From: Vulcanimicrobiaceae bacterium
GTDB lineage: Bacteria; Vulcanimicrobiota; Vulcanimicrobiia; Vulcanimicrobiales; Vulcanimicrobiaceae
Direction: 5' to 3'
Length of the DNA stretch: 27,989 nucleotides
Assembly: GCA_046262595.1 (NCBI GenBank)
Contig: JBHEMM010000021.1
Location: 1 to 27,989, forward strand
Of this stretch, positions 14,042-27,989 are shown one piece after another (position 1 is the first letter of the stretch; each line of letters begins with the position of its first letter). The translations under genes and the position numbers were made by a program. The notes below the pieces were generated by a model that had not been told where the DNA came from, did not search any database, and saw nothing but the letters and a program-made list of their open reading frames with translations.

Positions 14042-16039
14042 TTGGAATACGTACGCATGCATGAGATGGGTGTCGGGGGGAATTATCCCGTGCTTTGGGT
14101 GATTTGGCTGATGCCGTTACTCGGAGCGGTTCTGTGTTGGGCATGGGGGCCGCAGCTCAAACGCGGCGCCGGCGTGCTCGCAAGTGCGGCGGCCGGCGTT
14201 TCGTTCCTCGCCGCGCTGGCCGCTTGGGGAAGCGCGACGCAGCATGTGGGCGGGCTCTTAGGTGCGCATCAGGCGTTGTTTTCGTGGCTGCCCGGATTCG
14301 ATTTCGGCCTGCTGCTCGATCCGCTTGCGCTGATTTGGACGCTGATCATCTGCGGCGTGGGCTTCTTGATCCATGTCTATTCCATCGGGTATCTGTGGTC
14401 GGACCGCGCGATTGCGCGCTTCTTCGCGTACATGAACTTCTTCGTGTTCGCGATGCTCACGCTGGTGCTCAGCGATAACTTCGCCGGCTTACTCGTGGGT
14501 TGGGGTTTGGTGGGTCTGGCTTCGTACTTCCTGATCGGCTTTTGGTTCTTCAAGCCCTCAGCGGTCGCCGCCGCGCGTAAAGCGTTCGTCATCAACGTTG
14601 TCGGCGACGTCGGCATCATGTTCGCGATTTTTTTGATGTTCTCGAAGGTCGGCTCCGTCCGCTTCGCCGACGTCTTCGCCAACCCGCACGCGCTCGATCC
14701 ATGGCTTTTTTGGACGTGCGTGTTTTTGTTCATCGGCGCCGCCGCGAAGTCGGCGCAGCTGCCGCTGCATACCTGGCTTGCCGACGCGATGGAAGGGCCG
14801 ACCCCGGTCTCGGCACTTATCCATGCCGCAACGATGGTCACCGCCGGCGTCTATCTCGTCGCGCGCTGTTCGCCGCTTTGGACCGCCTCGCACGATGCCC
14901 AGACCTTGGTCGGAACGGTGGGCTGCCTCACGGCGCTGGCCGGCGCGATGCTCGGAATCGCGCAGTGGGACATCAAACGAATTCTGGCCTATTCCACCAT
15001 GTCACAGATCGGATACATGATCATGGGCGTCGGCGTTGGCGCGTTCGGCGCGGGCGTGGCGCATTTTTTCACGCACGCGTTCTTTAAAGCGTGCTTGTTC
15101 TTGGGCTCGGGCATCGTCATCCACGAGCTCGCCGACGAACAGGACATCCGCCTGATGGGCGGCATGCGTAAACGCACACCCGTCGCGTTTTGGGCCATGG
15201 GGGCTTCTGTGCTCGCCATCAGCGGCTTTCCATTTTTTTCCGGATACTTCAGTAAGGATCAAGTCATCTACGGCGCGCTGCAGAATGGGTATCCATGGAT
15301 GTGGGCGGTGGGGCTTCTGACGGCCGGCATCACGGCGTATTACATGTTCCGGTTGTTCTTCGTCACCTTTTTTGGCACGTACCGCGGCGCTTTGGATCCG
15401 GCGCAGGTCGGCGTGACGCGGCAAGCGCAGTCCGGCCCGGGCGCCGTCATCTCGCACCAGCATGCCGAACCGCACGAACGCGATGCGCACGCGCCTGGCT
15501 GGATTATGGCGGTGCCCGTTGCGATTCTCGGCGTTTTCGCCGTGACAGCCGGCTACCTCATGATCGGCCCCGAGTCGCCATGGGCGCATTTTTTCGCGTC
15601 TTCCTTTCCCGCGCGAGCATTGCCCACGCCGGCCATCAGCGAAGTGGCGACCACACTGATCGCCGTCGCAATGTTTGCGATCGGCTGCGCGCTGGCGTAC
15701 GGCCGCTACATGAGCCGTGCGTTCTTGGAAAACGCGGCGCAGCACCTCGCGCGCGAAACGCGAACGCAGCCGCGCGTCCTCGTGCATTTATACTACTTCA
15801 ACGAAGCGATCGACGTGCTGTTCGTGCGGCCCGCCCTGGCGCTGGGCACATTTTGCGGGCGCTGGTTCGATCCGCATCTGATCGACGGCGTGGTGCGTGA
15901 AACACTGTTGGGAAGCCGCTTCGCGGGCAGTGTGATGCGTGCGGCGCAGACCGGGCTGGTCCGTTCGTACGCGCTCGTGCTCGTCTTGGGCGCGGCTGCG
16001 TTTGCGGTGTACTACGCGCTCGAAGGGGCGGCGCACTGA
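14042..16039 (+). CDS. nuoL: NADH-quinone oxidoreductase subunit L
   Basis: Motifs KSAQLPLHTWLADAMEGPTPVSALIHAATMV, DIKRILAYSTMSQ, HAFFKA, FSKD and QTGLVRSY. The TTG start follows GGAG; alternative ATGs are at 14057 and 14066. Confidence 0.97.
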   Translation: MEYVRMHEMGVGGNYPVLWVIWLMPLLGAVLCWAWGPQLKRGAGVLASAAAGVSFLAALAAWGSATQHVGGLLGAHQALFSWLPGFDFGLLLDPLALIWTLIICGVGFLIHVYSIGYLWSDRAIARFFAYMNFFVFAMLTLVLSDNFAGLLVGWGLVGLASYFLIGFWFFKPSAVAAARKAFVINVVGDVGIMFAIFLMFSKVGSVRFADVFANPHALDPWLFWTCVFLFIGAAAKSAQLPLHTWLADAMEGPTPVSALIHAATMVTAGVYLVARCSPLWTASHDAQTLVGTVGCLTALAGAMLGIAQWDIKRILAYSTMSQIGYMIMGVGVGAFGAGVAHFFTHAFFKACLFLGSGIVIHELADEQDIRLMGGMRKRTPVAFWAMGASVLAISGFPFFSGYFSKDQVIYGALQNGYPWMWAVGLLTAGITAYYMFRLFFVTFFGTYRGALDPAQVGVTRQAQSGPGAVISHQHAEPHERDAHAPGWIMAVPVAILGVFAVTAGYLMIGPESPWAHFFASSFPARALPTPAISEVATTLIAVAMFAIGCALAYGRYMSRAFLENAAQHLARETRTQPRVLVHLYYFNEAIDVLFVRPALALGTFCGRWFDPHLIDGVVRETLLGSRFAGSVMRAAQTGLVRSYALVLVLGAAAFAVYYALEGAAH

Positions 16040-17436
16040 TGTCCGTGCTGCTCATTTTGATTCCCATGATCGCGGGTGCGCTGCTGTTCGCACTTCCCGC
16101 TGCGGATCGCACTGTAAGCCGCATCGCCGGCTGCGCTGTCGCCGCATTCACCTTTTTACTGCCGCTCGCAGCAGGCCCCGGCGGAACGTTCAGCGCGCAT
16201 TGGCTGTCGCGCCCGTTCGACGCCGCGTTCCACTTGAGTTGGAGCGGCATCTCGCTCTGGCTTGTGTTGCTGCTTGCGGTCTGTACGTTCTGTGCGGTGC
16301 TTGCCGCAAACGTGACGCACACGCGGACGATGATCGCGCTGCTGCTGCTGCTCGAGGGCAGCATGATGGGCGTCTTTACGGCGCGCGATCTGCTCGCGTT
16401 CGCGCTGTTTTGGGACCTGATGCTCATTCCGCCGTTTTTTGCACTCGTGGGATGGGGCGGTCACCGTGAAACGGCGTGGCGCTACTTGCTCTATAATTTT
16501 GCCGGAGGATTAACGCTGCTGCTCGCAACGGCGGCCTTCGGCGTGATCCAAGGCAGCACCGACGTACTCGCCGGCGGGGCACATGCGGTGATCGGCGCCT
16601 GGGCGCCGTGGATCTTTGCCGGGTTTGCGTTTGCGTTCGCCGTAAAGACGCCGCTGTTTCCTTTGCATACGTGGATGCCGGCGACATATGCGGATACGCC
16701 GGCGCCGATGGTCAGTGTGGTCAGCTCGGTGCAGTCGAAGGCCGGTCTCTACGGATTCTTGGTGATCGGATTGCCGTTCTTGAGCGGCCAGATGGCGCAA
16801 TGGCGGGGATTGTTCGTCGTCATCGGGTTGATCTCGCTGCTCTACGGCGCATTTATCGCGCTCGCGCAGACGGACGCAAAGCGTATCGTGGCCTACTCGT
16901 CGCTCTCGCATCTGGGCCTCATCGCGCTCGCGGTGTTCAGTCAGAATCCCGTGGCCTTACAGGGCGCGCTGATCTATATTGTCGCGCACGGATTGTTCAG
17001 CGCAGCGCTCTTTCTCATACTCGGTTACGTGGAACAGCGCGAAGGAACGCGGTCGCTGCGCCGTCTGGGCGGTTTGGGCGCGCTCAATCCGAAGCTCGCC
17101 GGCGCGTTCACGATCGCCGCGTTGGCGGCACTCGGGCTTCCGGGCCTTGCCGGCTTTGCGGGCGAAATCGTCATTCTGACGGGCGTGCTGCGCGCGGGAC
17201 TGTTCTGGCCGGCGATGATCGCGCTTATCCCGATCGTTCTGGCTTCCGCCTACGTGCTGCGCTTGCTGCAAGACGTCATGAACGGCCCGCCGGTTGAGGA
17301 CTTGCCCGAGCGGCGCGATCTGACGCTCGTCGAAGGATTGGCCGTTGCTCCGCTGCTCGGCGCGCTCGTCGTACTCGGCGTGAACCCGCACGCGCTGACC
17401 GCAAGCGTCGCGGCAATTTTGGGAGCGAAACCATGA
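16039..17436 (+). CDS. nuoM: NADH-quinone oxidoreductase subunit M
   Basis: Motifs AFAVKTPLFPLHTWMP, DAKRIVAYSSLSH, AHGL and GLPGLAGFAGE. Confidence 0.96.
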   Translation: MSVLLILIPMIAGALLFALPAADRTVSRIAGCAVAAFTFLLPLAAGPGGTFSAHWLSRPFDAAFHLSWSGISLWLVLLLAVCTFCAVLAANVTHTRTMIALLLLLEGSMMGVFTARDLLAFALFWDLMLIPPFFALVGWGGHRETAWRYLLYNFAGGLTLLLATAAFGVIQGSTDVLAGGAHAVIGAWAPWIFAGFAFAFAVKTPLFPLHTWMPATYADTPAPMVSVVSSVQSKAGLYGFLVIGLPFLSGQMAQWRGLFVVIGLISLLYGAFIALAQTDAKRIVAYSSLSHLGLIALAVFSQNPVALQGALIYIVAHGLFSAALFLILGYVEQREGTRSLRRLGGLGALNPKLAGAFTIAALAALGLPGLAGFAGEIVILTGVLRAGLFWPAMIALIPIVLASAYVLRLLQDVMNGPPVEDLPERRDLTLVEGLAVAPLLGALVVLGVNPHALTASVAAILGAKP

Positions 17437-18866
17437 TCCTCAACCCGTACGGGGCGCTCGATTGGAACGCGGTCGCGCCGCTCTTCATCGTCGCAGGCGC
17501 CGCCGTCATCGTTCTGCTTGCCGATCTGCTCGTGCGAAAGCCGAACGGCTGGATATCGATTGGAATCGCCATTGCGGGTCTGCTCGCGGCGGGCGCATAT
17601 GCGGCGCGCAGCTTCGGCACGGTCCACTCCGCGTTCGCCGGCGGCTTTTTGCTCGGCGGATTCGGCATCGTGATGCAGGAAACGATTGTCATCGGCGCTT
17701 TGCTCGCGCTCGCAATGATCCGCGTCGACCGCAATCCGCAGCGCATCGGCGGCAGCGTCGCGCTGCTTCTGTGGGCGACCAGCGGCGCCATGCTGATGGC
17801 GGGCGCCGGGAACCTCATGACCGTGTTCTTGGGGCTGGAGCTGCTCTCGCTCGCACTGTATTGTTTGTGCGCGCTCGGCCGGCGTGCTGCGTCCCGCGAA
17901 TCAGGCTTCAAATATCTCATCCTATCCTCGACGGCTTCCGGGTTTCTGCTTTTCGGCATGGCGCTGCTGTTCGGCGCCACGGGAAGCATGGCGCTGGGCG
18001 CGCTCACCGCTCCCGCGCTCTCGCACGATCCGCTCTATTGGATCGGCGGCGGCCTATTTATCGCGGGGCTTGCGTTCAAATTGAGCTTGGTGCCGTTTCA
18101 CGTGTGGTCGCCCGACGTGTACGAAGGCGCTCCGCTCGCGGTGACGGCCTACATGAGCGTGGTTACGAAGGTCGGAACGCTGGCGGTGCTCGCGCGCTTC
18201 ATCTTCTCCGCATACGCTGCCGGAACCGGCGACGCGCTTCTGCTGCCGCTGTTCATCATCGCCGGCATATCGATGGTCGCCGGCAATGCGGCAATGATCG
18301 CGCAGACCGACCTCAAGAGGCTATTGGCGTATTCCGGCATCGCGCAGGCGGGGTATATCGTTGCGGCGCTCGCGGGCGGCACGGCACTGGGCGCGCGCTA
18401 TGCGATCTACTACGTCGTCGCCTACACACTTATGAACCTGGGCGCGTTTGCCGTTGCGGCGCTCTGTTCTCACGATGCCGAAGAGGGCGCGCACTTGCCA
18501 TCATACCGCGGGTTGGCGCGGCGCAGACCGTTCCTGGCTGCGGCCATGACGTTCTTTCTGCTCGCGCTCGCCGGCTTTCCGCCGACGGCCGGATTTCTGG
18601 GCAAAGTGCTCATCCTGTCGGTGAACGTGACGGCCGGCTTTGCCTGGCTGGGCGCGTTGCTCATCATCGGCACCGCGATATCGCTTTACGCCTACTTTAA
18701 AATCATCCGCGCGATGTACGAGCCGCAAGCGCGGCCGACCGCAGCGGCCGCGCGTTGGACGCAGTTGCCGTTGGCCTACGTGTCCATCGTCGTGTGCGCT
18801 GCGGCGATAGCGGTGATGACGTTCTATCCGCTCACGCCGAGCAGCGTTCTCCCGCTTGCGCGATAG
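17433..18866 (+). CDS. nuoN: NADH-quinone oxidoreductase subunit N
   Basis: Motifs FLGLELLSL, ESGFKY, FKLSLVPFHVWSPDVYEGAP, KRLLAYSGIAQAGY and GFPPTAGFLGK. Confidence 0.97.
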   Translation: MILNPYGALDWNAVAPLFIVAGAAVIVLLADLLVRKPNGWISIGIAIAGLLAAGAYAARSFGTVHSAFAGGFLLGGFGIVMQETIVIGALLALAMIRVDRNPQRIGGSVALLLWATSGAMLMAGAGNLMTVFLGLELLSLALYCLCALGRRAASRESGFKYLILSSTASGFLLFGMALLFGATGSMALGALTAPALSHDPLYWIGGGLFIAGLAFKLSLVPFHVWSPDVYEGAPLAVTAYMSVVTKVGTLAVLARFIFSAYAAGTGDALLLPLFIIAGISMVAGNAAMIAQTDLKRLLAYSGIAQAGYIVAALAGGTALGARYAIYYVVAYTLMNLGAFAVAALCSHDAEEGAHLPSYRGLARRRPFLAAAMTFFLLALAGFPPTAGFLGKVLILSVNVTAGFAWLGALLIIGTAISLYAYFKIIRAMYEPQARPTAAAARWTQLPLAYVSIVVCAAAIAVMTFYPLTPSSVLPLAR

Positions 18867-18898: not shown

Positions 18899-19009
18899 AA
18901 GTGTTCGTAGGAGCGCGCTCAGTAAGTAGACGGGTGTGCCGATAATCTGGTAGTAACGACGTAAGGGAATGCGGGTGCTCCCCCTCGTGTTGACGTGGGA
19001 GAGACTAAA

Positions 19010-19510
19010 ATGGATTTTCGGCGCGCGCTCATAGCGCTCTGCTTTTTGACTTCTACGCTGCCCGGAATCGCGCTTGCGCGACCGCAGGTGGCTTTGCATT
19101 TGTCCGCATTTTTAATTCAATCGTCGCAAGGCCGCAGCTCGCAAGTGCCGCTCGGCGATAAGAAGGCGCAAGCCGGAGATCGCGTGCGCTTCATTATCGA
19201 AGCGCGCAACAGCGGTTCGTCTTCCGCCTTGCATCTGACGCCCACCGATCCGATTCCGGCGCACATGACGTATGTGAGCGGCAGCGCACAGGATGGCCAA
19301 TCCACCGTGCAGTTTACCGTGGACGGAAAAACGTGGGCCGAACATCCCACCGTTCACGTCAAGACGAGCAAACGAACCATCAGCAAGCCGGCTGACCCCT
19401 CGATGTACAGGGCAATCCGCTGGGTGACGCACGTAGCATTACCGGCAAAGCATACGTTCACGTATTCGTACGAAGCGCAAGTGGACGGTCTTAAAAAAGG
19501 CGCGAAATGA
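19010..19510 (+). CDS. Small exported single DUF11-like domain protein
   Basis: GGGAG Shine-Dalgarno and ATG at 19010. The signal peptide ends in ALA. Motifs GDRVRFIIEARNSG, TDPIPAHMTYVSGSA and IRW..LPA..TYSYEAQV. Confidence 0.8.
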   Translation: MDFRRALIALCFLTSTLPGIALARPQVALHLSAFLIQSSQGRSSQVPLGDKKAQAGDRVRFIIEARNSGSSSALHLTPTDPIPAHMTYVSGSAQDGQSTVQFTVDGKTWAEHPTVHVKTSKRTISKPADPSMYRAIRWVTHVALPAKHTFTYSYEAQVDGLKKGAK

Positions 19511-22080
19511 ACCGGATTCTTTTGCGCGCCTGGTTCGGCGTTTTTGTCTTTGCCTGCGTTCTGGGATTGGCGCTCTCGCGGCACTCCGCCATGACGCCCG
19601 TAATGGCCGTTACGCCGAGTCCTACGCCCGTTCCGCTGCCGTACGCTTCGGCGACGCCGACACCGGCGAGTCCCTCGCTCACCGGCCCGGGACAAACGAT
19701 CACCAACGCCGCGTCCGCAACGTACAGCGACGGCACGAATACGTACAATATTCTCTCGAACACGGTCACCGTTTACGTGCAGAACGCTCCCACGCTCGTC
19801 GTACTCACGAACAACGGCACGAGCGTGGGAAGCAACACGACCCGCTATCCGGGCGTCTACACGTACGATCTGTACACGCTCGTCAACACGGGTAATGGGA
19901 CGGGCTATTTCACCGTCGCATCGGGCCCGCAAGCCTCGCCCACGCCGTTGCCCGCAACGAACAGCGGCACGGGAACGACCGGCACGGTCACCAACGTCAG
20001 TTACGATGTCAGCTGCAGCGGCGGCGCGACTTTGAACGACATCGTCACCACGATCGCCGCGCTGAATACCGACTTGCAGAACGCTGCGTGCAGCGTTGCT
20101 TCCAACGGCTCGGTGAGCATCGAAGTGGTCCTCGACCCGACGGCGGCGCCCGCTTCGGACGGATCGACGCTCGAAGCGCAGATCACCTATTCGACGAGCG
20201 GCACCGGCTACAATGCCGCGAGCTCGCTCTATGCAAGCAACTCGTACGTCGACCCGGTCGTCACGGACGAGCGAATCGACGTGCAGAAATCCCCGGCACC
20301 GATCGCGACGGACGGTACCGTCACGTATGCGGTCACCGCCAACAATGCCGGCAACGGCCCGGCGCAGTACGTTACCGACTATGGCACTACGTGTACGGGC
20401 ACCGTTACGGTGTGCGGCCCGGCATTGACGGGCCCCGGCTTGCTGATCGCGGATAAGATTCCGCTCAATGCAAGCAACACGCCGCTCCCCGTCGTTACGA
20501 TGTCGCCCTCGCCCGGGCCGCAAGCGCTGCCGCCGAGCACGACCGTTTCCGTCGTTTACACCACCGACAGTACTGCGAAGACGGGCTGGACCGTGAAGAC
20601 GGCCGCAACCTTCCCGCCGACGACGCGATACGTCGGCGTGTTCCTCACGGGCGGCGCATATGCGCTCGGCGCGGACCCCACGCCTGCGGCAACGACGACG
20701 CCGGGCTTCGTGCCGGCGGCGAGTTCGCAGATCGGTTTTAGCGTCACGCTCGGGCCGCTCCCCGCGAACCTCACCGTCAGCAATATCGTGACGGCTGCGG
20801 CGGGAGACAACAAGACGACGCCGTGCATCGAAGGGCCCGGCTTGGTGACGACCTCGACGAGCTGCGATCCGAACGGACCGAACGGCCCCGGCGGCGATCC
20901 GTCGATTCCGCTGGCAACGGCGCCGCCTTCACCGAGCGCGCCCGGACCGGGCCTCTCGAACACGACGACGACGTTTACTCCCGCGCTTTACAACGGCCCG
21001 CTCACTGCTCCGGATGCACAAGGCTGTTTCAACAGCAGCGCAGCTCCGGTGCCCCTGCCGACGTGGAGCCCGATGCCCAATCCGTTCCCGACGATTTCGC
21101 CCACAACGTCGCCGACCTGTGCCGCAACGGACAACCAAGACGACTTCACGCAAGCCGTGAGCACGCCGAATCCTTCTACGACCAACATGCCGTACGGCAC
21201 GCAGATGTCCGCCGCATCGACCGTGACGGTGGCGAACTCGATTAAAAACCCGGGCGCGCAATCCACCGTGTATCAGTTGACGTTTCCAACGCTTCCGGCG
21301 GGCATTACGGTGACGAGCGTCACCTACGGCGCCGCGTCGTGCTCGACGACCTCAACGCCGGCCTCGGGCGTATATCCGCTGGGAAGCATCGGCGCAGGTG
21401 CAACGATCCAATACTGCGTGCTCTATACCACCGCGACCGGTGCGAGCGCGCCGTATTACTTCCAGCCGCAGTTCGTTCAACTGCGCGTTGCATACTCGTC
21501 GGCGCCGGCGGTGTACTACAACGACACGTGGAACGTGCTGATGCCCGGCGGTTTCGTTGAAATCGTTAAGACCGCCAACATCCTGACCGCGCTTCCCGCA
21601 ATCTCGAACTTCTCCGGAAACTGCTCGGGAACGATTACGGGCGGCTTGCCGACGCTGGGCGTCTGTCCGGGCGGCATCATCCAATACGCCGTCGCCTACG
21701 TCAACACGTTACCGCCCACCTCAAGCGGCACGCCGGCCGAACCGGCTGGAGCATCCGTTGCGATGACGGGCAACTTGGTGATCACGGAAGACGGCGCTGT
21801 GAACGGCAGCAATTGGACGACGTACACGGGCGGCATGTTCGACCCTGCCGGCGCGGGTACGGTGCCGCTTGTTGCGGGGCTTTCATTGAGCACGCTCTCG
21901 GCGAATTGCGGCATCGTAACGCTCAAATGCGGCGCGACATCCGCTTCGGCGACCTTCGGCGGCGGCGCCTCACCGAATGGCAACCTCTACGGCTCGACGC
22001 ACTTCACCGCTACCATTCCCGCTGCGGGCATTACGGCGCAGAGCGTCGGCACGTTGATGTTCGCCGCAAAAGTGCACTAG
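19507..22080 (+). CDS. Large exported S/T/P-rich multi-Ig-fold (DUF11-like) protein, candidate major fibre subunit
   Basis: ATGA overlap and a signal peptide. Segments include TITNAASATY, YTLVNTGNG, VQKS..VTYAVTANNAG..ADKIP and IVKT..PGGIIQYAVAYVN..ITEDG. The mature region has 14 Cys. Confidence 0.8.
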   Translation: MNRILLRAWFGVFVFACVLGLALSRHSAMTPVMAVTPSPTPVPLPYASATPTPASPSLTGPGQTITNAASATYSDGTNTYNILSNTVTVYVQNAPTLVVLTNNGTSVGSNTTRYPGVYTYDLYTLVNTGNGTGYFTVASGPQASPTPLPATNSGTGTTGTVTNVSYDVSCSGGATLNDIVTTIAALNTDLQNAACSVASNGSVSIEVVLDPTAAPASDGSTLEAQITYSTSGTGYNAASSLYASNSYVDPVVTDERIDVQKSPAPIATDGTVTYAVTANNAGNGPAQYVTDYGTTCTGTVTVCGPALTGPGLLIADKIPLNASNTPLPVVTMSPSPGPQALPPSTTVSVVYTTDSTAKTGWTVKTAATFPPTTRYVGVFLTGGAYALGADPTPAATTTPGFVPAASSQIGFSVTLGPLPANLTVSNIVTAAAGDNKTTPCIEGPGLVTTSTSCDPNGPNGPGGDPSIPLATAPPSPSAPGPGLSNTTTTFTPALYNGPLTAPDAQGCFNSSAAPVPLPTWSPMPNPFPTISPTTSPTCAATDNQDDFTQAVSTPNPSTTNMPYGTQMSAASTVTVANSIKNPGAQSTVYQLTFPTLPAGITVTSVTYGAASCSTTSTPASGVYPLGSIGAGATIQYCVLYTTATGASAPYYFQPQFVQLRVAYSSAPAVYYNDTWNVLMPGGFVEIVKTANILTALPAISNFSGNCSGTITGGLPTLGVCPGGIIQYAVAYVNTLPPTSSGTPAEPAGASVAMTGNLVITEDGAVNGSNWTTYTGGMFDPAGAGTVPLVAGLSLSTLSANCGIVTLKCGATSASATFGGGASPNGNLYGSTHFTATIPAAGITAQSVGTLMFAAKVH

Positions 22081-22096
22081 GCACAATCGAGGTCTG

Positions 22097-24256
22097 GTGA
22101 AGGGTGCCTTCGTCCGACTAATACCGGTCGCCACGGTCCTCATGACGCTCGTTGTCATGTTGGGCCGTGGCGAATCGGCATATGCCGGGCCGTCCGATCC
22201 GGCCGCTAACACAACGATAATCAATTCGGCTACGGCGACCTGGTCCGACAGTGCCGGGCATAGTTTCGAAGAATCGTCCAATCAGATTACCGTTATCGTC
22301 CAAGGCGTTTCGGCGCTTACCGTGACGCCGAAGGAAACCGCTGCGAATCCCTCGCTGGATGGTTATCCCGCCGCTCAAAACGTGACGCGGACGTTCGTGA
22401 TCGAAAACGCGAGCAACATCGCCGACGCGTACCGCATATCCGCATTTACGGCCGACCGCGGAACGCTCGTTTCGCTTGCGTTCGTCACGTCCGGCGGGAA
22501 CGTTCCCATCACCGTCGGTTCCACCGTCTCGCCCACGCTGCAGCCGGGCGAGAGCATCACGGTGCAAACGGTCGTCTCAACGGCGGGCATTGCGGTAGGC
22601 ACCTCGTTTGCGCTGCATCTCACGGCGCAGACCACCGTCACGGGAACCGCGAACGGCGTGCAGAGCGACAGCGGCGAGCAATGGCTTGTGGCGGCGGCCG
22701 GTCCGGCTTTGAGCGGCCCCGGCGGCGGCAGCACGCCGATCTCGAAAACGGTGAACCGCGAACAAGTGCTGCAGTCGCAGTCGGGCGCGATCGTCACGTT
22801 CGACATCGTCGTAAAGAACAACGGCGGGACGCCTGCCGACAACGCGGTGATGACGGATACGATACCCGCCGGCCTGACGGCCGACCTGACGACGCTTAAA
22901 CTCAACGGCGTTGCGGTTTCGGGAACGCAATCCGGTCAAACGCTCACGGTGCCGCTTGGCATGCTGGCGGCAGGCGCGGTCGACGACGTCTCGTTCAATT
23001 CGCAGATCGCTGCTATCGATACGCTCGGCACGACGTTCGTGAACGTCGCGGCGATCGCCGCAGACGGTATTGCGCCGGCCTCGACGACGCCGGCCGCCAT
23101 TTTGATCGGCACGGCCGACATCGTTTTCGACCCGTCGAACAACAACGCGCCGATCGCCGGCGCGACCGTTTCGCTCCTCGACCAGAACAGTCACTTGGTG
23201 CCCCTGGGCGCCGGCAGCAACGGCGCGTTCCGCGCGAAGACTTTTTCCGCTCCGCAGTCGGCCAATTCGCAGAACCCGTTGCTCACGGGTCCCGACGGCA
23301 CGTACGGGTTCGCGCTCGAGCCGAATCAAATCGGCCCCGGCGCAGGCACGTTTTACATTACGATTCAGGCTCCCGGGTATCTTAACCGCCGAATCAAAAT
23401 CGTTCTCACGGCGTCCACGCAAGGCATGCTGTACGACGTGACGACCTCATCGCAGGACGGCCAGCCCTTAGCGCACGCGGGCGGGTATGCGCTTACAACG
23501 GGCGCCGTTGCGCTCAATAATATCTTCGGTTTGTTCGGCAACTTGCCGATGTTCAAAACGCAGGCGATTACCATCGATAAAGTGGTCGACCGCACCAGCG
23601 CGCAACCCGGCGACCGGCTCGTCTACACGCTCGATGTTGCGAACCCGTCCGGCGCGCCGCTGATCGCGGCCAAGGCGATCGACACGCTGCCCTCGGGCGA
23701 ATCGTATGCGCCCGGATCCGCGCGCGTGGATGGGGTCCCGCGCGAACCCGCCGTCAACGGACGCGCGCTGACGTGGAATCTCTCGACGATCGCCTCGGGC
23801 GCGAAACATCAGATCGTTTACGCGGCGATCGTCTATCCCAACGTCCCGGCCGGTACCACGTTGACGAACTCCGCGGTCGCGCAGGCGGTCCTCTCGGGAA
23901 CACTGGTCAACGTAAATGCCGCGGCCAATGCCGACGTCATCATCACCGAAGGCGCATTGAGCGACCGCTCCGTCATCACCGGCCGGGTGTTCGCGGACCT
24001 GATGCACACCGGCCGCTTCGTTAAAGGCGATCGCGGCCTGGCCGGCGTGCGCGTCTTTCTTGAAGACGGCACCTCGGTGACGACGGACTCGCAAGGGCGC
24101 TACAGTTTCCCGGGCGTCCGGCCGGGCATGCACGTGCTTCGCGTCGACCGGACGACGCTTCCCGACGGCGCAAACGGGACGTTTCAGCGTCTCATCCACG
24201 GCGTGCTCGACGACGGGCTGATGCAAGACGTCGAGTTTGCGGTGGGTTCGCCATGA
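22097..24256 (+). CDS. Exported protein with two DUF11 repeats and a C-terminal SdrD-B-like domain
   Basis: GAGG followed by GTG, then a signal ending AYA. Repeats are SKTV..VTFDIVVKNNG..TDTIPAGL and DKVVD..PGDRLVYTL..DTLPSG. The C-terminal domain reads ITGRVFAD..GLAGVRVFLEDG..TDSQGRYSFPGVRPGMHVLRVDRTTLP. Confidence 0.85.
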   Translation: MKGAFVRLIPVATVLMTLVVMLGRGESAYAGPSDPAANTTIINSATATWSDSAGHSFEESSNQITVIVQGVSALTVTPKETAANPSLDGYPAAQNVTRTFVIENASNIADAYRISAFTADRGTLVSLAFVTSGGNVPITVGSTVSPTLQPGESITVQTVVSTAGIAVGTSFALHLTAQTTVTGTANGVQSDSGEQWLVAAAGPALSGPGGGSTPISKTVNREQVLQSQSGAIVTFDIVVKNNGGTPADNAVMTDTIPAGLTADLTTLKLNGVAVSGTQSGQTLTVPLGMLAAGAVDDVSFNSQIAAIDTLGTTFVNVAAIAADGIAPASTTPAAILIGTADIVFDPSNNNAPIAGATVSLLDQNSHLVPLGAGSNGAFRAKTFSAPQSANSQNPLLTGPDGTYGFALEPNQIGPGAGTFYITIQAPGYLNRRIKIVLTASTQGMLYDVTTSSQDGQPLAHAGGYALTTGAVALNNIFGLFGNLPMFKTQAITIDKVVDRTSAQPGDRLVYTLDVANPSGAPLIAAKAIDTLPSGESYAPGSARVDGVPREPAVNGRALTWNLSTIASGAKHQIVYAAIVYPNVPAGTTLTNSAVAQAVLSGTLVNVNAAANADVIITEGALSDRSVITGRVFADLMHTGRFVKGDRGLAGVRVFLEDGTSVTTDSQGRYSFPGVRPGMHVLRVDRTTLPDGANGTFQRLIHGVLDDGLMQDVEFAVGSP

Positions 24257-27200
24257 TCCGCCGCTCGTTTGCGCGCCTGCTGCAGGCCGTCGCGGTGCTG
24301 TTGATCTGCGTAGCCGGCGTGGGTTCGACGTTGTTCTTCACGCGCGCGCAAGACGATTCGAAACCGCAATACAGTGACCTCTCCCATCTGAAGCTGACGG
24401 CGACGCGCAGGCTGCCGGCCAACGTGATCGCTCCGCAGGACGGCGCATCGATTTCGGGCGCCGCAACGCAAGTCACCGTGGAAACCGTGAACGGTGCGGG
24501 CGTCGAGCTCCAGGTGAACGGCGAGATCGTTCCGGTTCGGAACTTGGGACGCATGAGCGTTTCGAAGGCGGGAACGACGCAGTTCGAGTACTTCGGCGTG
24601 CTCCTTCGTGCCGGTCCGAACACGCTGCTTGCCACGGCAATCGGCGCCGGCGGCGCACGCGGAGCATCACAGAGCGAAACGATCTTCGGCGCCGGGCCGC
24701 CCGTCGCGATCCATGTATCGATGCTTGGTTCGCTTGTCGCGGACGGTAAAACGACGGCCCGGCTCATCGTCGATGCGGTCGACCAATGGAATCATCCCGC
24801 CATGTCGGGATCGGAAGTGCGCGTGAAGATTCTGCAGGGCCGCGCGCGCGTGGGCAACGCCGGCCAAAGCGATCCCGCAGCTGGCGCGTCGCCGGCTCCC
24901 TCGGCGTTTGCAACCTCGCTGCCCGCAAGCGGCACATCGTCGCCGCAAGCGCATTACGTTCTGGCGCAGGGCGGCCGCATCGTCATTCCGCTGACGGCCT
25001 CACTCGAGCCCGGAACGCTGCAGCTGCAGGTTGCGGTCAACGACATCACCGATACGCAGAGCTACACGATTGCGCCGTACCTGCGCGCTCCGTTCGTCAA
25101 CGGCATCATCTCCGCCGGAGCCGGGAACGTCCCGGCCGCCGTTGACGGCGACGGACGCTATGACGGCGGCGGCGCGCGCAAAGAGCGTCTTGCGATTTAT
25201 GCAAACGGCAAAGTAGGGCGCGCAAGTTCTCTCACGTTCTCGTACGAATCGCAGAACCGTTTAGAGGAATCGTCCTCGCTGGGTCCGTTCGTTTCGAATC
25301 CTGACGAGCGTCCGTATCAAACGTACGGCGACTCCTCGCGCGTAACCAGCGATTTTCACTCGACTGACCGCCTTTATGCACGCATCGATAACGGCCGCAA
25401 CAATCTGATGTGGGGCCAATACACGGCGGCCGTCGGAGATCCGCAGGGCGTTGCGCATTACGAGCAGCAGATCAGCGGCCTCAAAGGCGAGGCGACGCTG
25501 GGGCGTCCGGGACAAGGCCATGTCATGGCGTTTACCGCGCACGATCGCACCGGCTACGTGGCGTTCACCACTCCGGTTTCGGGGTTGGGAGCGCTGCTTG
25601 CGCCGCTGCACCCGAACGTCGTGATCGGCTCGGACGTGCTCACGCTCGTGGCTTTGGACCGCCGCACGGGCGCAGCCGCGTCGCAGACGCCGCTCACCCG
25701 CAACGTCGACTACACGATCGACTACGCGACGGGCGCGCTGCGTTTCCTCAATGTTCCGTTACCGTTCGATCAGAACTTCAATCCGCAGTTGCTGTACATT
25801 CAGTATCAATACCAGGGCCCCGACGTAAAATCCGAGACGAGCGGATTCGACTTCCGCTATGCACTGGCGCGCAACGGCTCCGCGACGTTTGACTTCGGCT
25901 ACTTGAACGATGCGAGCGGTACGACGAACTACTCGCTCGCGACGCAGTCCTTGAGCGGCCGCATGCCGACGGGCGATTGGCGTTTCTCGCGCGCAACGAG
26001 CAACGGTTCGGCGCCGACCGCCGCAAGCTTCGGCGAAACGCCGGCCTCGCGCGGAAGCGCAACGTCGTTCGCGCTTAACGAACACGTTCGCGGCAACGAG
26101 ATCGCTTTCAACTACCAAAATACAGGCGCCGGATTTGCGAATCCGTTCGGCGGCTTTAACGTGACGGGTTTGGAGAACATCCAGGCCACGTTCGCGCACC
26201 GCACGCGCAGTCAAAGCGCGTTCACGCTTTCTCTCTCGCAGCAGCGCAATACCGGAGGTTCGGGCGGATCGACCGGCGTTGAGCAAAACGTCGTGGCGAG
26301 CTGGCAGGCTGCGATCGCCAAAGCGCTCGCCGTTACCTTGGGATTTCAAGCGCAGCGCGAGACGAACGGCCCGGGCGCGATTGTGCCCGGACACACGCCG
26401 GTGCAGCCGGTCAACGGTTCGAGCGCCGGGCTGCAGGCGGGATTGCAATGGAAGGCGTCGCGCCGGCTCAGCGTGAGCGTGCAGCATGCCGCCTCACTCG
26501 GCGGCAACAGCCAAATTTTGCCTTCGCAAACCGCCGCGGAAGCCGACTACGATCTGCCCACGCAAGGCCGGCTCTACGTGCGCGAGCTGCTCGGCGGCGG
26601 CGTCTCGAGTTTTGCCTCGTCCACGTCGAGCCTTACAAACGCTTCCCTCGGCTCTCGTTCAACGCAGATCGGCATTCAGCGCACGATCGGCTCCACAACG
26701 GCGCTCGACACGTCGTATCTCATCGCCGACACGGGCAACGAAACGAACGTGTATACGACGCTGGGCGTGCAGGAAACGTTTCACCTTGGTAAGCGCCTCT
26801 CCGGCAACGCGACGTTCGAAAGCGCGCGTTCCACCGGCGCAAGCCCGGGCGGATTCAGCACGCTCGGAACGGGGTTGACGTACAGCGATCTCAAAGATTT
26901 CCGCGCCTCGTTTTCAATGCAGACGCGCGGCGGGGGCGGCGGCGGAATGACGATGAACGGAGGCGCTGCGGGGCATATCGGCCAAAATCTCGCGCTCATG
27001 GGATCGTTCAATGAAACGTTCGGCAACGGCCTTTCCATTGTTGACGACCGCATCTCGCTCGCGTTTCGTCCGTCTCAGAACGACAGGTTTATCTCGCTGC
27101 TCGGGCTGGACCGCCAATCCGGCGGCTATACAAACACTGCCGGAACCTCCGACATCCTCTCGTTTGAGGAAGTGTACCGGCCCACGCTTACGACGGAAAT

Positions 27201-27528
27201 TGCGGGCCGCGTCGGCTACAAGCTCAATGGCGACGGATACTATCTCGCGCACAGTTCGGTTGCGGGCGTGCGCATCACCCAATCGCTCGGCGCGCGGTTC
27301 GACATCGCCGGCGAAGTGCGCGCGATGGCTGCCGGGAACGTTGCGTCCGCGCGTTCTTCGGATTTTGCAGCCGAGATCGGCTACAAAGCGGGCGGCGCGC
27401 GGCTGTCGGGCGGGTACAATTTCTCTGGTGCGGTCGACCCGTCGCTTACCGGACATCCGCAGCGCAAAGGCTTGTATGTGATGGTAACGGCGCTTGTCGA
27501 TCGCATCTTCGGCTGGGGCAAGCCGTGA
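24253..27528 (+). CDS. Large predicted outer-membrane beta-barrel protein with N-terminal Ig-like domains
   Basis: It has its own signal peptide and an Ig-like region (ADGKTT..VDQW). Motifs YQTYGDSS and RNVDYTIDYATGAL are followed by several hundred residues of alternating amphipathic strands ending in GYNFSG..KGLYV. Confidence 0.75.
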   Translation: MIRRSFARLLQAVAVLLICVAGVGSTLFFTRAQDDSKPQYSDLSHLKLTATRRLPANVIAPQDGASISGAATQVTVETVNGAGVELQVNGEIVPVRNLGRMSVSKAGTTQFEYFGVLLRAGPNTLLATAIGAGGARGASQSETIFGAGPPVAIHVSMLGSLVADGKTTARLIVDAVDQWNHPAMSGSEVRVKILQGRARVGNAGQSDPAAGASPAPSAFATSLPASGTSSPQAHYVLAQGGRIVIPLTASLEPGTLQLQVAVNDITDTQSYTIAPYLRAPFVNGIISAGAGNVPAAVDGDGRYDGGGARKERLAIYANGKVGRASSLTFSYESQNRLEESSSLGPFVSNPDERPYQTYGDSSRVTSDFHSTDRLYARIDNGRNNLMWGQYTAAVGDPQGVAHYEQQISGLKGEATLGRPGQGHVMAFTAHDRTGYVAFTTPVSGLGALLAPLHPNVVIGSDVLTLVALDRRTGAAASQTPLTRNVDYTIDYATGALRFLNVPLPFDQNFNPQLLYIQYQYQGPDVKSETSGFDFRYALARNGSATFDFGYLNDASGTTNYSLATQSLSGRMPTGDWRFSRATSNGSAPTAASFGETPASRGSATSFALNEHVRGNEIAFNYQNTGAGFANPFGGFNVTGLENIQATFAHRTRSQSAFTLSLSQQRNTGGSGGSTGVEQNVVASWQAAIAKALAVTLGFQAQRETNGPGAIVPGHTPVQPVNGSSAGLQAGLQWKASRRLSVSVQHAASLGGNSQILPSQTAAEADYDLPTQGRLYVRELLGGGVSSFASSTSSLTNASLGSRSTQIGIQRTIGSTTALDTSYLIADTGNETNVYTTLGVQETFHLGKRLSGNATFESARSTGASPGGFSTLGTGLTYSDLKDFRASFSMQTRGGGGGGMTMNGGAAGHIGQNLALMGSFNETFGNGLSIVDDRISLAFRPSQNDRFISLLGLDRQSGGYTNTAGTSDILSFEEVYRPTLTTEIAGRVGYKLNGDGYYLAHSSVAGVRITQSLGARFDIAGEVRAMAAGNVASARSSDFAAEIGYKAGGARLSGGYNFSGAVDPSLTGHPQRKGLYVMVTALVDRIFGWGKP

Positions 27529-27989
27529 GCCGCGGCGGCAAACGGCTTGTAAAACGCACTGCGGTTGGACTGGTTCTGCTCGCGCAGGTGTACGCGTTCG
27601 TTCCGGCGCCGGCGCAAGAACGGCAGACGTACGCCTTTGCCGCAAGCGTCACGTGCCCAACCACGCCCGGAAACTATGTCGCCGGCGGGACGCTGGCCGC
27701 CGGCGTGAACAGCTATTGGCAGCCGCCCGCGGGGACGCTTGCGGCAGGCTCCACGACGTTTTCGCTGGGAACGATCGACACCGCGGGCGGCGGCGCCTCC
27801 ACAACGCCGAGCGCCGGCGACGAACTGTTGCTGATCCAGATGCAAGACGGATCCATCAATACGGCCAACAGCGCGGCTTACGGCGGCGGGGGCACCGGCG
27901 GCACCGGTTTCACTTCGCTCGGCAACGCCGGCTTGTACGAGTACGTATCGGTAACCGGCGTGGCGGGTTCCACAATGACGATCCAGGGC
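27525..27989 (+). CDS. Exported adhesin-like protein, 3'-partial (absent from the ORF track)
   Basis: GTGA overlap, and the frame is open to the window end: MSRGGKRLVKRTAVGLVLLAQVYAFVPAPAQ...GDELLLIQMQDGSINTANSAAYGG...GNAGLYEYV. Confidence 0.75.
   Translation, partial: MSRGGKRLVKRTAVGLVLLAQVYAFVPAPAQERQTYAFAASVTCPTTPGNYVAGGTLAAGVNSYWQPPAGTLAAGSTTFSLGTIDTAGGGASTTPSAGDELLLIQMQDGSINTANSAAYGGGGTGGTGFTSLGNAGLYEYVSVTGVAGSTMTIQG

Follow-up and report, generated by a model that had tools for sequence, protein, structure and literature searches.

A small DUF11-like protein that lacks the isopeptide lysine is a candidate decoy acceptor for the donor hairpins of putative fibre subunits

Results

A small gene at the start of a five-gene operon

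We analyzed a stretch of 27,989 nucleotides (the window; contig JBHEMM010000021.1, positions 1 to 27,989 of the forward strand) from an uncultured soil bacterium of the Eremiobacterota. The first gene of a five-gene operon in the window encodes a small DUF11-like protein of 166 amino acids (19010..19510 on the + strand, including the stop codon at 19508-19510), recognized from its open reading frame, its Pfam matches and its homologues. In the list of open reading frames the gene starts at a GTG at 18995, giving 171 amino acids. We prefer the ATG at 19010 because the database copy that is 100% identical has 166 amino acids and because a Shine-Dalgarno-like GGGAGAG (18997..19003, + strand, read from the sequence) is 6 nt upstream. 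Most relatives are also 166 amino acids long. The small gene is not a chance open reading frame, since there are 23 homologues of 149-167 amino acids (E values down to 1e-80) and its synteny is conserved.

A gap of 143 nt separates the small gene from the end of nuoN at 18866. nuoN is the final gene of an NADH dehydrogenase operon, and the Shine-Dalgarno-like sequence lies inside the gap. A promoter scan found no sigma-70-like site, using a consensus that may not be the organism's own. The genes nuoL-M-N (window 14042-18866) are immediately 5' of the fibre operon. They are likewise 5' of the fibre operon in a relative (L003 4511-9898) whose small protein is 54% identical, indicating that the position of the fibre operon after the nuo genes is conserved.

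The protein appears to be exported. Residues 1-23 (19010..19078, + strand) resemble a Sec-type signal peptide, with cleavage after A21-L-A23 inferred rather than computed. The signal region is a helix over residues 3-14 in the AF2 model, and A23 and P25 are invariant in the alignment of homologues. We considered a lipoprotein or Tat signal and found support for neither: there is no lipobox, and an RR pair is not conserved among the homologues.

The small protein ends early and has no Lys on strand 1

We found matches in the small protein to PF01345 (DUF11; E 1.1e-7, 32.6 bits, cut-off 24.6) and to TIGR01451 (E 3.6e-8, 33.3 bits, cut-off 24). Residues 50-110 correspond to positions 10-66 of the 114 in the PF01345 profile. 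RrgB_K2N_iso_D2 also matched, at E 0.022, below its cut-off. Judged by its sequence, the small protein is a secreted, single-domain member of the DUF11/CLIPPER family, with a domain of about 135 residues.

The DUF11 core, located by Pfam, alignment and co-folding, is at 19175..19258 (+ strand) and extends from G56-D-R-V-R-F..N67 to T79-D80-P-I-P83; the codon for D80 is at 19247-19249. Both motifs that the earlier note had read there, GDRVRF..N and TD80PIP, were found, at G56-D57-R58-V59-R60-F61...N67 and T79-D80-P81-I82-P83 in the numbering of the 166-amino-acid protein.

The C-terminal end of the protein falls short of the end of a complete domain. The last strand, H-T-F-T-Y-S-Y-E-A-Q-V (residues 148-158), and a basic tail, D-G-L-K-K-G-A-K, are encoded at 19451..19507 (+ strand; alignment and AF2 model). 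By BLAST, residues 52-153 of the small protein align with residues 501-576 of its 719-amino-acid neighbor (the third gene of the operon), which are in the second complete DUF11 domain of that protein. The 30 gap positions in the row of the 719-amino-acid protein mark extra residues in the small protein. The complete domain of the neighbor runs on to profile position 98, through the Asn strand and the last strand. In contrast, beyond the aligned part the small protein has five strand residues and the eight-residue basic tail. Its DUF11 domain is thus incomplete and lacks the final two strands, one of which is the Asn strand. The earlier note had claimed that the Asn strand is missing after YSYEAQV, and this proved correct, as the protein ends with F150-T-Y-S-Y-E-A-Q-V158 and 8 tail residues and the complete neighboring domain continues. 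In a MAFFT alignment of 39 homologues (29 database proteins and 10 translated from loci), the C-terminal end is 8 or fewer residues past that strand in 38.

We also found that the Lys needed for an isopeptide bond is missing. Strand 1 (residues 27-39; 19088..19126, + strand; AF2 model, co-fold and alignment) has the pattern V27-x-L29-x-L31-x-A33 (V27-A-L-H-L-S-A33). Complete domains have a Lys at the third core-facing place. In the small protein this place is occupied by L31 (codon 19100-19102), in agreement with the earlier reading of strand 1 as VALHLSAF without the Lys. None of the 39 homologues has a Lys at any of the core-facing positions 27, 29, 31 and 33, which was the orthologue check that the earlier note had proposed. 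Position 31 is Leu in 36 of them, Met in 2 and Ser in 1. Asp80, the Asp of the triad, is kept in 24 of the 39. The small protein does not have the Lys-Asp-Asn triad of isopeptide domains, and the description of an acceptor-type module with neither the Asn hairpin nor the Lys holds for all 39 homologues examined.

Several other features of the small protein are recorded here as observations in their own right. H30 (19097-19099) probably points outward from strand 1. Of the 38 homologues that have a residue at this position, 35 have a basic one (His in 24, Lys in 6, Arg in 5); the docking model described below does not explain this. Relative to a complete DUF11 domain, the small protein has about 30 extra residues, 98-127 (19301..19390, + strand), with limits taken from the model strands 98-103, 114-118 and 123-127. 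Residues 101-108 (window 19310-19333), within this region, form a turn with the pattern (S/T)-x-D-G-K-T-W, or S-L-D-G-G-K-T-W in a distant subgroup, and D105 and G106 of the turn are invariant in 23 homologues. We take the S/T-x-D-G-K-T-W turn to resemble an Asp-box motif. The basic tail, N/D-G-x-K-K-G-A-K (19484-19507), is conserved in the close subgroup and has low model confidence. The distant subgroup has no basic tail; a single Lys, Gln or Glu directly follows the last strand.

Genes 2-5 encode putative donors and acceptors

The small gene and the gene after it share the sequence ATGA, which holds the TGA of the former and the ATG of the latter. This second gene (19507..22080, + strand; open reading frame and alignment) encodes an 857-amino-acid protein that we call the shaft subunit. 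It has a signal peptide, a Pro-rich linker, a nearly invariant N-terminal hairpin and a C-terminal acceptor domain with a Lys. The donor hairpin comprises residues 56-95 (19672..19791, + strand; alignment, hairpin query and co-fold), with the codon for N67 at 19705-19707. In 14 shaft homologues, N67, K688, E685 and E761 are invariant, and K688, E685 and E761 lie in the C-terminal acceptor domain. That domain and the small protein break off at the same strand. We compared the small-protein family to the shaft family with hhalign. The probability was 8%, the match was to an internal DUF11-like stretch, and the C-terminal acceptor was not matched; therefore, the small protein is not a recent copy of the shaft acceptor.

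The third gene (22097..24256, + strand; Pfam, BLAST and hairpin query) encodes a 719-amino-acid protein. Its N-terminus carries a hairpin (~22202-22312), its C-terminal domain is CarboxypepD_reg / SdrD_B-like, and it also contains two DUF11 domains that are complete. It has no open acceptor and is classed as a donor-only subunit. The fourth gene (24253..27528, + strand) shares nucleotides with both of its neighbors, at the stop of gene 3 and at the start of gene 5. It encodes a 1091-amino-acid protein that falls into no clear family and has a weak Invasin_D3 match near its N-terminus. No Usher match was found in this protein at E up to 0.01. Its C-terminal 800 residues fall among language-model look-alike clusters that are unnamed except for one labeled 'outer membrane protein family', which is a lead only. 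It is possible that this part is an outer-membrane domain, making the protein a candidate export pore or anchor.

The fifth gene, of ~950 codons, starts in the window (27525..27989, + strand; profile and BLAST) and continues at L011 126-2971. In the assembly its frame is broken by 10 N at L011 592-601, just past the end of the window. Over its C-terminal 223 amino acids, the product shares 35% identity (E 3e-28) with the acceptor domain of the 857-amino-acid protein, with the Lys aligned, and its middle part is Gly-rich. A query with the hairpin in this genome and in one relative matched genes 2 and 3 only, and the N-terminus of an intact orthologue of the fifth gene shows no hairpin. The product of this gene is likely an acceptor-only tip subunit that has kept the Lys. 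By these assignments, the operon comprises two putative donors, two putative Lys-bearing acceptors and one putative Lys-less acceptor.

The genome (89.7% complete) contains Omp85/BamA, and therefore the cell has a periplasm. We found no sortase in this 89.7% complete genome, and assembly would therefore proceed without one. A second DUF11 group is present elsewhere in the genome (G000:C11:35018-39755), with open frames of 725 and 1078 amino acids. Many relatives also have a DUF11 protein of ~1100 amino acids at another place in the genome.

The small gene is linked to a hairpin-bearing gene across genomes

We found that the small gene is almost always next to a gene for a hairpin-bearing protein. 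In a sample of the phylum, 151 Eremiobacterota genomes, 26 had a full-length homologue of the small protein at E <= 1e-30, a count that leaves out a weaker full-length match in genome G104; of the two copies in genome G134, one entered the analysis. A match to the shaft profile (E <= 1e-20) was present in 18 of the genomes, and in all 18 the small gene was directly upstream of it on the same strand. We read the other eight loci. In seven, where the shafts are more divergent, the small gene is immediately followed by a gene for a protein of 776-848 amino acids that bears an Asn hairpin at its N-terminus; in one of these, the shaft hairpin was missed by the pattern and was read by eye. At the same seven loci the next gene encodes a protein of 711-736 amino acids with an N-terminus of the same look. 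Taken together, a hairpin-bearing gene directly follows the small gene in 25 of 26 genomes, across a range of 38-77% identity. The small-gene stop and the shaft start abut or overlap by up to 4 nt in 9 of the 10 loci in which they were read (using the longest-ORF rule).

The distant subgroup (P0021-23 type) had been considered as a stand-alone form. We rejected this, as the seven loci show hairpin genes downstream of it too. The stand-alone exception within the phylum is the G149/L024 locus. The homologue there (L024 794-1507, the same as L004 9875-10588) has a different C-terminal tail and is 37 residues longer; we found no frameshift or alternative frame in it that would restore the usual end. 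This 37-residue tail might fill the hairpin site in cis. A relative on a Deinococcales contig (L006; 31% identity) has the usual C-terminal end and is beside unrelated genes at the start of the contig. Queries of the genomes of L004/L024 and L006 found neither an 857-like protein nor the hairpin. In one relative (L017 1193-11719), the pair of small gene and shaft gene is present twice, with two genes (for 498 and 248 amino acids) between the pairs, and the second small gene there is without its N-terminal part.

Predicted fold of the small protein

The AF2 model of the monomer, made from a 23-row alignment, was a confidently predicted sandwich with a mean pLDDT of 85.9, a pTM of 0.74 and ten strands within residues 27-158. 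Foldseek found no match in the PDB at E <= 0.001. A wide structural search returned Ig-like domains at Z 8-9, mostly of isopeptide-type adhesins and pilins, at values near the stated background of the tool. Also near that background were the individual neighbors: the C-terminus of AgI/II (Z 9.3, rmsd 3.7, 107 residues aligned), PrgB (Z 8.7), the stand-alone 160-amino-acid Thermus protein 7wrk (Z 8.2, rmsd 2.8, 104 residues aligned) and CLIPPER 9IFR (Z 8.1, rmsd 2.7, 94 residues aligned to chain residues 18-114). When the PDB was searched by sequence, neither the family profile, nor a complete DUF11 domain of the neighbor, nor the Deinococcales relative gave a meaningful match. The confident monomer model settles the completeness of the fold in neither direction, and the predicted fold may be self-sufficient.

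The donor hairpin of the shaft subunit is predicted to fit the small protein

For the co-fold we combined the small protein in its mature form (residues 25-166; 23-row alignment) and the hairpin of the 857-amino-acid protein (residues 54-97; 14-row alignment), one of the two hairpins for which the earlier note had suggested this check. The pair reached an ipSAE of 0.70 (0.67, 0.70 and 0.72 in three runs), and the best of 3 controls was 0.00. This passes the mark, as did 116 of 157 solved complexes and 2 of 215 mismatched pairs; these counts are only roughly valid here because we used our own alignments. Contact agreement among the runs was at least 88%, and the pLDDT of the partner was at least 81.

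In the model, hairpin residues 69-74 are antiparallel to residues 73-80 of the small protein, in the strand that ends in D80 (strand 73-81). Residues A69, S84 and V87 of the hairpin contact L31, and alternate residues of strand 2 (V59, F61, I63 and A65) are covered by the hairpin. The extra region, 98-127, is outside the predicted interface. The predicted geometry is that of a DUF11 domain rebuilt from two chains, with a Leu where a Lys would reach the Asn. These results support the notion that the hairpin fits the small protein, as a predicted fit rather than as real binding. It is possible that the co-fold passed because of a likeness to intact or solved DUF11 folds such as 9IFR.

We had also considered that the N-terminal strands might fill the groove in cis, as in a circular permutation, or themselves act as a donor. 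In the co-fold, strand 1 takes a normal place in the core beneath the hairpin, which makes these ideas less likely, although not firmly so, as the model was judged without coordinates.

Discussion

A possible role for the small protein in fibre assembly

This analysis shows the anatomy of the small protein, the conservation of that anatomy, the linkage of its gene to the shaft gene and a passed co-fold. The reading that we favor, tentatively and somewhat short of an even chance, is that the 166-amino-acid protein serves as a decoy acceptor, itself non-reactive, and keeps the reactive hairpins masked until assembly. Loss of the Lys in every homologue examined is in keeping with a partner that has to release the hairpin.

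Based on these results we infer binding, reversibility, a periplasmic location and hand-over, which would be combined as follows. The small protein would be exported by Sec to the periplasm. There it would take up the N-terminal Asn hairpin of the 857-amino-acid subunit, and probably that of the 719-amino-acid subunit, with the hairpin completing the beta-sandwich of the small protein. As the dock has no nucleophile, its complex with the hairpin could not lock and would stay reversible. Docking would keep the hairpin from Lys-bearing acceptors, including the C-terminal acceptor of the same subunit. At the assembly site the hairpin would be passed to a true acceptor, and formation of the isopeptide bond would make the transfer irreversible. 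In its most specific form, the proposal is that the small protein is a natural 'SpyDock', that is, a split isopeptide domain stripped of its Lys that serves as an acceptor-type chaperone, masks Asn hairpins in a diderm periplasm and yields to the true acceptors. We regard this specific form as possible and hold it with somewhat more doubt. A decoy would account for protection of the hairpins and not for protection of the incomplete acceptor domains.

The earlier note had proposed a candidate chaperone or cap. The acceptor-type anatomy and the fit in the co-fold speak for that proposal as a whole. Of its two parts, the chaperone is favored by the gene context. The cap is the less probable one, since the operon already has, in its fifth gene, a source of a covalent end with an acceptor only. 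A fibre made of the product of gene 5, then n copies of that of gene 2, then that of gene 3 leaves no free hairpin, and therefore a cap has no obvious place. The stop of the small gene on the start of the shaft gene fits near-equal synthesis of the two proteins. These points bear on a related explanation, which we consider unlikely: that the small protein is a structural end-piece, a non-covalent cap or adaptor on one free hairpin, either as an alternative to the large acceptor-only tip or as a first subunit that nucleates assembly. The co-fold and the anatomy are what one would expect of an acceptor-only terminal subunit, linkage to the shaft gene is conserved, and terminal subunits with one complementation element are known or proposed in other fibres, namely Saci_0405 (PMC9715654) and TafF (PMC11821415). 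However, the operon already has an acceptor-only subunit that keeps its Lys, and a cap that cannot lock would be the weakest link of a covalent chain. First place in the operon and a stop on the shaft start seem better suited to shaft-like amounts than to one copy per fibre, and the Lys is lost in 39 of 39 homologues.

It is also possible, with a low probability of much the same order, that the small protein is a self-sufficient secreted DUF11-like protein with no hairpin role (for example in the matrix, in adhesion or in the envelope), and that the missing strands reflect a compact form of the fold. In favor of this, the monomer model is confident, its structural neighbors include the stand-alone 7wrk and many Ig-like adhesin domains, and there are stand-alone relatives with the same C-terminal end outside fibre operons. 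In addition, many DUF11 domains are without isopeptide residues according to the CLIPPER survey (PMC12617251). In contrast, a free-standing role does not lead one to expect the small gene directly 5' of a hairpin-bearing gene in 25 of 26 genomes at 38-77% identity. In the co-fold the hairpin covers the hydrophobic residues of strands 1 and 2 that face the core and that would be exposed without it, and the co-fold controls were at 0.00. A negative regulator of fibre length or number, that is, a secreted competitor that titrates hairpins and so limits polymerization, is the least probable of the explanations we weighed, and we think it quite improbable. The co-fold evidence for it is the same as for the decoy reading, and a Lys-less decoy is inherently a competitive inhibitor of locking. 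However, sequence cannot separate a regulator from a chaperone, and co-translation with the shaft gene would give no independent control of its level.

Why a decoy acceptor might be needed

In subunits that lock covalently, a premature or intramolecular reaction is irreversible, unlike in ordinary donor-strand pili. If the decoy reading is correct, this problem would be solved simply, by a conserved copy of the acceptor that has no Lys and is produced along with the shaft, and such a copy would be a new kind of assembly factor. The logic of such a chaperone would be inverse to that of PapD, and bond formation would supply the direction. It would then also be a general answer to the question of how self-ligating fibre subunits avoid reacting with themselves. 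The system would provide a natural pair of reversible and irreversible binders for one peptide hairpin, which would make it interesting for the design of protein-ligation tools. The two halves are small, look soluble and could be produced in E. coli, so the idea is directly testable even though the host is uncultured.

Comparison with known systems

PapD donates a strand into the groove of a pilus subunit. Like PapD and FimC, the small protein is a small secreted Ig-like protein that is encoded with fibre subunits and with a large, possible outer-membrane protein, and the proposal is likewise one of reversible complementation of subunits before assembly (compare PMC9715654 and PMC11821415). 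In contrast to PapD, it would accept a donor hairpin rather than donate a strand; it has one domain, not two, and there is no sequence relationship. A Pfam scan of the small protein (E up to 1) matched DUF11 and, weakly, Invasin_D3 alone and none of the pilus chaperone families, and the operon has no recognizable outer-membrane protein of the Usher family. In the main texts that our literature search covered (most subscription journals were outside it), we found no description of a DUF11 fibre system or of an acceptor-type chaperone. What the search returned on donor strands concerned the DUF1102 and DUF4183 systems, and what it returned on intermolecular isopeptide bonds concerned BsaA and the archaeal threads.

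Among known systems, the sequence family of the small protein is that of CLIPPER. As reported for 9IFR, the domain has nine strands and a Lys715-Asn806 bond within one chain, presumably catalysed by Asp748 (PMC12617251). The small protein is in the same sequence family, has a predicted Ig-like, CnaA-like fold, and shares the G-D-x-V-x-F/Y...N and T-D-P-I-P motifs. It differs in being without the last two strands, in having Leu for Lys and in having ~30 extra residues. In addition, CLIPPER is a repeat in the long stalk of an adhesin, whereas the small protein is a single free domain.

FimI/PapH and FimH/PapG are terminal subunits of donor-strand fibres. Like these proteins, and like Saci_0405 and TafF, the small protein has one of two complementation elements and is encoded beside the major subunit. 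In contrast, those proteins are proposed or shown to stay in the fibre, and in the operon described here that place is filled by a separate, Lys-bearing acceptor-only subunit. Archaeal threads have isopeptide links between subunits and a putative cap (PMC9715654).

A system in which exchange is followed by a lock is known for BsaA and BsaB of Clostridium perfringens, members of the TasA family, in which donor-strand exchange is followed by an Asn-Lys isopeptide lock with a catalytic acid (PMC11580942). The BsaA operon also holds paralogues without the triad (PMC11580942). The DUF11 system would be similar in having a donated N-terminal segment and an Asn-Lys isopeptide (here as predicted), and its operon has a paralogue without the triad. 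It differs in that BsaA and BsaB have the TasA fold, their host is a monoderm and their donor is a loop rather than a hairpin; their triad-less paralogues are not described as acceptor-only docks. By the same split-isopeptide, exchange-and-lock comparison, the shaft subunit has N67, K688, E685 and E761 in each of 14 homologues, and the small protein has the shape of an acceptor without the Lys.

A precedent for the proposed role is an engineered one. SpyDock, a SpyCatcher in which one residue of the reactive triad is mutated, binds SpyTag 1:1 and reversibly, with reported Kd values of 0.75 and 0.073 uM (PMC6465384). SpyDock is of the CnaB type and has the catalytic Glu mutated, whereas the small protein is natural, is of the CnaA/DUF11 type and has the Lys replaced. 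In both cases a split isopeptide domain is represented by its acceptor half, minus one residue of the triad.
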